From: an uncultured Clostridia bacterium
Lineage (GTDB): Bacteria > Bacillota > Clostridia > TANB77 > CAG-508
NCBI GenBank assembly: GCA_947632525.1
Contig: CANRPQ010000002.1
Span: forward strand, 1-32,604
Direction of reading: 5' to 3'
DNA: 32,604 bases
Both the position numbers and the translations under genes were made by a program. Shown one piece after another: positions 30,575 to 30,879 of the stretch. The notes under the pieces are model-generated. The model was not told the DNA's origin. It made no database searches and saw only the letters and a list, made by a program, of their open reading frames with translations. Position 1 is the stretch's first letter, and every line of letters starts with the position of its first letter.

Positions 30575-30603
30575 GACATAACTAGATTTGTATACCATAA
30601 TAA
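30575..30603 (+). repeat. Partial third (direct) copy of the arm of the 30614-30879 palindrome
   Basis: cataactagatttgtata (30577-30594) is identical to 30617-30634. Confidence 0.7.
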
Positions 30604-30613
30604 AAAATTCATA

Positions 30614-30879
30614 TAGCATAACTAGATTTGTATAATAAAAGTGCAGACCGCGCAAGGTGAGCGAAGCGAACGCCTGTCGTTGTCTTCTGCTATTCGTGCC
30701 AAAATGTTGTATATATCTTTTTTCTTTCCACTTCGGACGCTCCGCTACAGGGTCCCTTGCCTTTCAGGCATTCCCTATACCTCGTTCCACTACAAAATGA
30801 TATATACAACATTTTATGCACAATAAGAGGAGCAACGTCCAGCAAGGTCAAGCGTTATTATACAAATCTAGTTATGCTA
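30614..30879. repeat. Composite palindromic GC-rich intergenic element (25-bp perfect terminal inverted repeats) between nrnA and truB
   Basis: tagcataactagatttgtataataa (30614-30638) is the exact reverse complement of 30855-30879. The interior is GC-rich, partly self-complementary, and carries copy 2 of the core repeat. Confidence 0.75.
30701..30815. repeat. Copy 2 of the GC-rich core (30718-30804, inverted relative to copy 1) with its own 17-bp perfect flanking inverted repeat
   Basis: aaaatgttgtatatatc (30701-30717) is the exact reverse complement of gatatatacaacatttt (30799-30815). The core is about 94% identical to rc of 18197-18283 by hand alignment. Confidence 0.75.

Follow-up and report, generated by a model that had tools for sequence, protein, structure and literature searches.

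A nested palindromic insertion between nrnA and truB of an uncultured gut Clostridium occurs in both orientations among close strains

The nrnA-truB Locus and Its Palindromic Element

The core operon nusA-infB-rbfA-nrnA-truB of an uncultured, low-GC Clostridium from the rabbit gut is interrupted between its last two genes by a palindromic, non-coding element, and a 264-bp segment of that locus (positions 30595-30858) is found in both orientations among close strains. All positions refer to the window, the whole stretch of DNA that was analysed, 32,604 nt in length (contig CANRPQ010000002.1 of assembly GCA_947632525.1, uncultured Clostridia bacterium). The genes bordering the element are an nrnA-type gene with DHH and DHHA1 domains (29582-30529) and truB, encoding tRNA pseudouridine-55 synthase, whose ATG lies at 30921; the spacer between them measures 391 bp. 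The rbfA gene also adjoins, and a convergent rubrerythrin gene occurs beyond truB. An initial annotation, made from the letters of the window, had viewed the spacer as harboring either an inserted miniature inverted-repeat transposable element (MITE) or a structured RNA locus.

The element is framed by a perfect 25-nt inverted repeat, TAGCATAACTAGATTTGTATAATAA, with its left copy (arm b) at 30614-30638 on the plus strand, its right copy (arm c) at 30855-30879 on the minus strand, and 216 nt between the two. The outer ends of this repeat enclose 266 bp, and such a small, non-coding unit bounded by terminal inverted repeats (TIRs) has the format of a MITE. A third copy, arm a (CATAACTAGATTTGTATA, 30577-30594, plus strand), is identical to 30617-30634 and complementary to 30859-30876, and its start lies 40 nt from that of arm b. 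Three occurrences of this 18-mer in the window compare with 0.17 expected, and none of 100 shuffled sequences reached three. The perfect repeat and the 18-nt direct copy had both been recognized in the initial annotation. Arms a and b are separated by a 22-nt spacer (30595-30616, plus strand) containing a -35-like TTCATA at 30608-30613. To the left, the flank following the nrnA stop codon (30530-30576, plus strand) includes a degenerate fourth arm-like unit (30537-30561) that is 80% complementary to the right arm, and to the right, a flank of 30880-30920 (plus strand) extends to the truB ATG.

The interior between arms b and c has a GC content of 41-48%, as compared to 15-30% in the flanks and about 25% in the general context. 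It begins with a left GC-rich segment (30639-30700, plus strand), containing a unit that we call module L and the 5' strand of a long stem, and ends with a right GC-rich segment (30816-30854, plus strand) that supplies the 3' strand of the stem. Module L has the form GCAGACCGCGCAAGGTGAG-loop-CGAACGCC and makes a small hairpin, AGGUG/CGCCU; its family pattern can be written GCAGACCGCGCAAGGYGAG...CGARCGCC. As first described, the interior halves pair with each other and share a direct motif starting GCAAGG (30652-30663 and 30842-30854, the second within the right segment). Overlooked at that stage was a nested, AT-rich inner inverted repeat of 22 nt (30701-30722 / 30794-30815, 95%), which forms the hairpin arms of a 115-nt apical insert (30701-30815). 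Carried in this insert is a GC-rich core of approximately 87 nt (core copy 2, 30718-30804), whose better-folding strand, hereafter its sense strand, is the minus strand.

Folding of the whole element yields about -101 kcal/mol on the plus strand (z = -10.1) and about -103.6 on the minus strand (z = -8.2). A strand call from the minimum free energy of the whole element proved uninformative (-100.2 versus -102.8), and a preference appears only when the modules are taken separately. Rfam 15 contained no family matching the element at E<=10 on either strand, and none matching anywhere in the window at gathering scores; a blastn comparison of the element with plasmid and phage records likewise gave no match. 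A conserved small protein in the interior was considered and ruled out: the open reading frames (ORFs) of the element are not conserved, because a frame-breaking indel separates the window copy from that of a sister species.

Insertion into a Tight Gene Junction

Contigs of relatives, numbered with an L, were recovered through TruB and NrnA homologues, and their nrnA-truB junctions are short. The two genes overlap in L013, are 2 nt apart in L017, and are 30 nt apart in L018 (species C), which represents an empty site. A second empty site is present in a contig of run X17, where position 30533 is joined to 30911 via 24 letters that equal the flanks of a further relative, species B, minus its element. 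Species B (L019 and L016, from the same sample and joined through a 30-nt overlap) is filled at the same point, with a 188-nt spacer holding a 143-bp element that has 21-nt perfect arms (AAATAACTAGATATTTATAAT) and the same GC-rich segments. The palindrome is an insertion into a normally tight nrnA-truB junction and not a plain spacer, as the initial annotation had proposed from the usual packing of these genes, and it shows the presence/absence polymorphism with recoverable empty sites that is expected of a MITE. Identities of nrnA and truB give the tree (window,(B,C)) with C empty, which implies either a precise loss of the element from species C and from the lineage of X17 or two gains at this junction.

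The species B element possesses module L and the long stem, with a short loop in place of window positions 30701-30815. Since the sister-species version lacks the apical part, the window copy is nested, and the apical hairpin is a later insertion at the apex of the outer element. The earlier proposal of a single MITE-like element thus holds for the insertion itself and fails for its singleness, given that an apical hairpin and a dispersed core are stacked on the outer element; nor do the arms, unique to the locus by depth in the source sample, show the repetition expected of a TIR family.

Inversion of the Segment between Arms

Evidence for inversion, like that for depth described further below, was read from assembled contigs. 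The first line of evidence comes from L023, a contig whose TruB is 97% identical to that of the window and which was assembled from a different sample in the same series of rabbits. Upstream of truB, L023 presents, in order, the sense core, the inner stem, the reverse complement of the left GC-rich segment, an arm, the reverse complement of the spacer 30595-30616, another arm, and the unchanged right flank; the inter-arm spacer is therefore inverted and has changed sides relative to the interior. Over its full 260 nt, L023 matches the product predicted for an inversion between arms a and c (30577-30594 x 30859-30876), with 10 mismatches. This product scores 470 in the alignment, as opposed to 144 for the uninverted window and 326 for the product of an inversion between b and c, the 25-nt repeat.

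A second line of evidence comes from X6, a gut metagenome of a different study. One X6 contig of 125 nt comprises the nrnA end, the left flank, and arm a, and then continues into ATAACGCTTGAC, the reverse complement of 30847-30858, which is the inverted left junction. A right junction of the window type is also present in that metagenome, on a contig that covers 30847-30947 and has a strain-specific deletion of 13 nt. Depth is 2 for either junction contig and 3.95 for the unitig common to them. The two states can be told apart by the letters following arm a (CCATAATA in the window state versus ATAACGCT in the inverted state) and by those preceding arm c (GCGTTAT versus TTATTATGG). The window form alone was seen in the window, in L008-L012, and in X1-X4, the metagenome runs containing the window (5-7x in the source sample). 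The left junction had no coverage in runs X21, X5, X3, and X4.

The segment 30595-30858, comprising the spacer, arm b, and the interior, occurs in both orientations among close strains, with the right flank the same in each; this is the main new result. As in an inverton, the segment is bounded by inverted repeats and both of its orientations lie between identical flanks (L023 and X6). The inversion breaks at a and c (on the right, at the 18-mer 30859-30876), and arm a, the third copy, thus serves as one of its end points. The initial annotation had likened the multiple arm copies to arrays of recombinase or transposase binding sites, and the breaks in L023 and X6, at the third copy and the right arm, support a role of the arms as recombination end points.

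L022, a contig from the same sample as L023, has a different left flank. At its positions 1271-1296, it departs from the window 24 nt before arm a and enters AACTTCTAAAAAAATCTTTTCTTTA, which matches the nrnA 3' end (30490-30514) in inverted orientation at 22 of 25 positions. Such a divergence could stem from another rearrangement, from an arm that originated in flanking DNA, or from an artefact at the end of the contig.

One could conceivably explain all of this by a static insertion, with the inverted contigs produced by chimeric reads at the inverted repeats or by assembly errors. The very low coverage of the supporting contigs and the fold-back-like sequence in which L022 ends would suit such an explanation. 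We nevertheless regard it as very unlikely, inasmuch as two independent data sets and two assemblers gave complementary junctions at exactly the predicted bases. Moreover, the repeats, at 18-19 nt, are shorter than the k-mer length of either assembler, making a graph mis-join unlikely; the depths of the X6 contigs add up (2 + 2 = 3.95); and L023 carries its 10 strain-specific differences across the inverted part.

A Dispersed Interior with Locus-Specific Arms

The core at 30718-30804 is a 94% reverse-complement copy of 18197-18283, a relationship that the initial annotation had missed. This core copy 1 lies at the tip of a different AT-rich hairpin (18184-18303, plus strand; arms 18184-18212 / 18275-18303) downstream of disA. 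A TTGACA-17-TATAAT sequence, matching the sigma-70 consensus at 12 of 12 positions, is found directly upstream of that hairpin at 18140-18168, and a cyclophilin gene (18338-19162) is found downstream of it. With such a site upstream and the core in its better-folding orientation, core copy 1 would form the 5' leader of the cyclophilin gene. By exact look-up, all contigs matched via this cyclophilin gene belong to the same strain and have the same orientation.

Summed contig depth in X1-X4 is 5-10 for the flanks and arms, approximately 20-40 for the GC-rich segments, and 150-440 for the core. The depth of the core rises to about 1100 in another gut run and is about 160 in a mouse-gut metatranscriptome; in fact, the core is very abundant in rabbit, rat, and mouse gut metagenomes. 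This profile marks the core as a repeat that is widely dispersed and the GC-rich outer interior as one of low copy number, with unique arms. In the source sample, interior depth ranges from 4x to 60x against single-copy arms. Within the window, the arm 18-mer is confined to the nrnA-truB locus, and a search of 185,579 representative genomes returned seven chance matches in unrelated phyla, none of them from the host organism. Many copies sharing the same terminal repeats, as in a classical MITE family, were therefore not found in the window, by source-sample depth, or among the representative genomes. A 22-mer of the core was absent from viral contigs and from JGI metagenome contigs, and spurious ORF products of the element, used as protein queries, gave no candidate further copies.

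In other contigs, similarity to the element begins at 30626-30634 (in three of them at 30631, the TATAAT) and stops near 30859, with unrelated sequence outside. The left GC-rich segment is retained both in the sister species and in gut metagenome contigs that bear different arms, and module L was also seen in gut runs, mouse among them. One paralogous interior, from the same sample and at single-genome depth, is 97% identical over 122 nt and is enclosed by different arms; its left side has two tandem arm copies, TATATAACTAGTAT and TAATATAGCTAGTAC. Contigs with this composite interior, matching window 30626-30747, were seen in X3 and X18, and the tandem arms contain (A/G)CTAGTA. Either ATAACTAG or AGCTAG is common to the arms at three loci. 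A CTAG-based site signal was considered and discarded, as CTAG is not rare in this DNA.

Other arrangements of the same parts were also encountered. A contig of run X16 joins 30631 and 30718 on opposite strands, with the core followed immediately by TATAAT and module L in the same orientation, indicating that the modules are combined differently at other loci. Some contigs of X1-X4 (window 30720-30794) keep the 22-nt AT-rich stems and replace the 71-nt core by only 12-14 different letters (CTTGATTTTACCTT, CTATTTGACTTA), which shows that hairpins with these stems can also lack the core. Four assemblies of the same strain (L009-L012) break inside the element, in the arm, the left GC-rich segment, or the core (30640-30760). 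Breaks of this kind are expected of nested repeats, and the contents of the spacer are easily lost from such metagenome-assembled genomes.

Elsewhere in the window, four ORFs of 143-521 aa lack a Pfam match at E<=1e-5 (2644-3075, 7377-7814, 10422-11987, and 21682-23085). Their neighbors are housekeeping genes, namely mutL, miaA, sepF, divIVA, ftsK, radA, disA, mutS2, nusA, and infB.

Conserved Pairing and Strand Preference

With its apical insert removed, the window element is 75% identical to that of species B. The 49 consensus base pairs comprise 38 without change, six altered on one side, and five altered on both, with no pair lost. On the plus strand, each of the six one-sided changes is G-U-compatible; the double changes include two arm positions, a position in the closing stem (GACC/GGUC versus GUCC/GGAC), and a position in the long stem. 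Consensus folding gives -48.3 on the plus strand versus -36.6 on the minus strand, and the outer element alone folds approximately 6 kcal/mol better on the plus strand in both species. The core alone folds at -19.0 kcal/mol on its sense strand versus -13.4 kcal/mol on the other, the sense strand being plus at copy 1 and minus at copy 2. Within the core, the pair 30762/30766 covaries (T-A to C-G) across many contigs and between the two copies in the window. On a sample of two sequences, below what a formal test requires, the pattern argues for constraint at the level of a folded single strand, RNA being the simplest candidate, and arm-to-arm conversion could also keep the palindromic parts matched.

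Promoter-Like Sites and Possible Transcription of the Interior

As noted in the initial annotation, each arm has a TATAAT hexamer pointing inward (30631-30636 in arm b, facing truB, and 30862->30857 in arm c), and TTCATA lies 17 nt upstream of the left one. In a consensus scan, these form a plus-strand site, TTCATA-17-TATAAT (30608-30636), that faces the interior and truB in the window, and a minus-strand site, TTGCCT-18-TATAAT (30886->30857), that reads inward from the right. In L023, no plus-strand site is left upstream of truB, and TTCATA-17-TATAAT points to nrnA instead. Depending on orientation, the interior and the one good promoter-like site would thus be directed at truB or at nrnA. 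Whereas truB and nrnA are coupled in relatives, they are separated here by a 266-nt hairpin whose perfect stem spans 25 bp. This hairpin would be a natural substrate for RNase III and a block to coupling, so a promoter borne on the element could matter, and orientation may change truB expression. An intrinsic terminator was also considered and ruled out, with none predicted at the element or at core copy 1.

Taken further, such features might mean that the element serves mainly as an RNA gene or as a cis-regulatory leader, with the interior transcribed from TATAAT and the arms acting as promoter and terminator instead of as recombination sites. Similarity in other family members does start at the TATAAT at 30631 regardless of what lies upstream, core copy 1 stands right behind its sigma-70 site in the better-folding orientation, related modules occur in mouse-gut metatranscriptome contigs, and the compensatory and G-U-compatible changes, together with the strand preference, fit an RNA. 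Still, we consider such a primary role quite doubtful: the element matches no Rfam family, is absent from close relatives at nrnA-truB, occurs in both orientations relative to its neighbors, and has no canonical terminator predicted. In addition, the outer element and the core prefer opposite strands in the window, and contig depth in RNA data is no evidence of a defined transcript. The structured RNA locus put forward in the initial annotation fares well as to pairing and per-module strand preference and poorly as to Rfam, relatives, and orientation.

A Probable Layered, Invertible Cassette and How It Might Flip

Our preferred interpretation, which we judge probable though far from settled, is a nested, Correia-like, invertible, non-coding cassette of the MITE type. 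Its first layer would be an outer element of approximately 143-150 bp without the apical insert, whose AT-rich arms, bearing ATAACTAG and a TATAAT that points inward, surround a three-way GC-rich structure made up of a closing stem (GACC/GGUC), a small hairpin (AGGYG/CGCCU), and the long stem. The second layer would be the 115-nt AT-stemmed hairpin with its dispersed GC-rich core of approximately 87 nt, inserted later at the apex of the long stem, and the third would be the duplication of the left arm into copies a and b. Recombination of oppositely oriented arms, a with c and presumably also b with c, would flip the segment between them. The arms may be substrates of a trans-acting recombinase or, instead, of arm-to-arm homologous recombination or template switching, and the hairpin would presumably be transcribed within the operon. 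Within this interpretation, we give roughly equal weight to switching by a dedicated recombinase and to passive exchange between arms.

The passive route, on its own, would make the element a selfish palindrome that flip-flops by RecA-dependent exchange or replication template switching, with the inversion, the arm duplication, and the gene conversion that keeps the arms matched all being without function. On such a view, occasional inversion of the spacer is to be expected of every long perfect inverted repeat, much as happens with hairpin loops in plastid spacers. Several observations agree with this: the arms are perfectly matched yet differ between species at both arms, as conversion would give; orientation differs between strains that are approximately 4% apart; no recombinase is nearby; and recurrent small hairpin inversions are well known in plastomes (PMC6824564). 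As a full account, it is possible but rather unlikely, because symmetry at the DNA level does not predict the RNA-level constraint suggested by six of six one-sided changes being G-U-compatible on the plus strand and by a strand preference of 5-6 kcal/mol in both modules. Furthermore, tandem left-arm copies recur at a second locus, and 18-25 bp is short for efficient homologous recombination.

The dedicated route, on its own, would make the locus a true inverton, in which an invertase of the tyrosine or serine type, with its gene elsewhere, flips the cassette and so switches a promoter or leader close to truB ON (as in the window) or OFF (as in L023). A segment of 264 bp with inverted repeats of 18-25 nt fits known invertons (PMC11892184; PMC5903667), both junction types are present at approximately 1:1 in one sample (X6), and the promoter-like site flips with the segment. 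Locus-specific arms could be tolerated, given that RecV of Clostridioides difficile handles switches with unrelated inverted repeats (PMC5903667), and the arms at three loci do share ATAACTAG or AGCTAG. Even so, a true inverton strikes us as unlikely. The window revealed no invertase, the gene that would be switched encodes a housekeeping tRNA pseudouridine synthase as opposed to a surface or signalling protein, and the element is missing from close relatives, making any such control dispensable. Moreover, the arm motif common to the loci is short and CTAG not rare here, and the X6 metagenome could hold two strains and not one switching clone.

Several points also weigh against the layered, invertible cassette that we prefer. 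Each inverted junction rests on one low-coverage contig (2.1x for L023 and a depth of 2 for X6), two strains in X6, being a metagenome, are not distinguishable from switching within one strain, and the divergence of the L022 left flank at 30552 falls outside the simple model. No direct repeat was seen around the window copy, a target-site duplication being ambiguous in AT-rich flanks; in species B, a possible duplication (AATAAAATAA on the left and AATAAAAAATAA on the right) is likewise set in low-complexity AT sequence. Arms that are locus-specific do not fit a TIR-recognizing transposase, and no transposase or recombinase domain was found in ORFs of at least 110 aa across the 32.6 kb of the window, in agreement with the initial annotation, which had seen no transposase. 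Finally, the promoter calls are consensus matches in AT-rich DNA, where seven sites compare with 3.2 +/- 2.2 in shuffled sequences.

Similar Systems in Other Genomes

Of the known systems, the Correia element of Neisseria (CREE/NEMIS) comes closest. Correia elements have promoters in their inverted repeats, are cleaved by RNase III, and can invert (PMC2649163; PMC10969869). Both they and the nrnA-truB element are small and non-coding, have TIRs of approximately 25 nt (approximately 26 nt in Correia) with -10-like boxes, reside in intergenic positions within transcription units, can form a long hairpin, and vary in presence or absence between close strains; the inversion reported for Correia (PMC2649163; PMC10969869) extends the likeness. 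Correia copies, in contrast, share one TIR consensus, are flanked by a TA duplication, and number in the hundreds per genome, whereas here the arms are locus-specific, the GC-rich interior is what is conserved, the host is a low-GC Clostridium, and a second repeat family is nested at the apex.

Another comparison is with the switches of C. difficile (Cdi1-7, for example, those at cwpV and flgB; RecV) and with gut invertons in general, which are also 150-300 bp in length, have short site-specific inverted repeats, and are located 5' of a gene (PMC5903667; PMC11892184). In those systems, the recombinase is encoded elsewhere, and RecV acts in trans (PMC5903667; PMC11892184). Such switches are single-copy regulatory sites with unrelated interiors beside surface, motility, or signalling genes, whereas the element described here has an interior from a dispersed repeat family, three copies of its arm, and truB as its neighbor, and is absent from a sister species.

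A third comparison is with ERIC (IRU) and the BOX elements of pneumococcus, which, like the nrnA-truB element, are modular, imperfect palindromes in transcribed spacers. Longer forms of ERIC arise through insertion of extra sequence at internal sites. BOX, RUP, and SPRITE elements also have longer forms with extra sequence inserted at internal sites (PMC3049150; PMC2229807). Unlike the present element, ERIC and BOX have ends that are conserved between their copies and are not known to flip, and there is no sequence similarity between them and it. Finally, in plastid spacers, a loop between perfect AT-rich inverted repeats can be found in either orientation among close lineages, by an enzyme-free process (PMC6824564). 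Those inversions mostly involve tens of bases in unique spacers, in contrast to the 264 bp and conserved repeat module observed here.

Implications for Gut Clostridia

On our interpretation, the nrnA-truB element provides a concrete Correia-like case outside the Proteobacteria, and its nested repeats explain why assemblies break at this junction. Interiors conserved across rabbit, rat, and mouse gut communities in combination with locus-specific arms are accounted for neither by classical MITE transposition nor by classical invertons. It is conceivable, if very unlikely on present evidence, that uncultured gut Clostridia carry a family of portable flip cassettes, each consisting of a conserved, GC-rich, strand-specific RNA module with its own -10 box between locus-specific arms with duplicated sites, which a trans-acting recombinase would invert, one of them setting a heritable ON or OFF state of the housekeeping gene truB in the genome studied here. 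More generally, if our interpretation is correct, small palindromic insertions in uncultured low-GC gut Clostridia would be dynamic, invertible units and not inert spacers, and such units would be layered, with one repeat family at the apex of another, and able to sit inside core operons. If inversion does control truB, this would amount to phase variation linked to tRNA modification and delivered by a mobile element.

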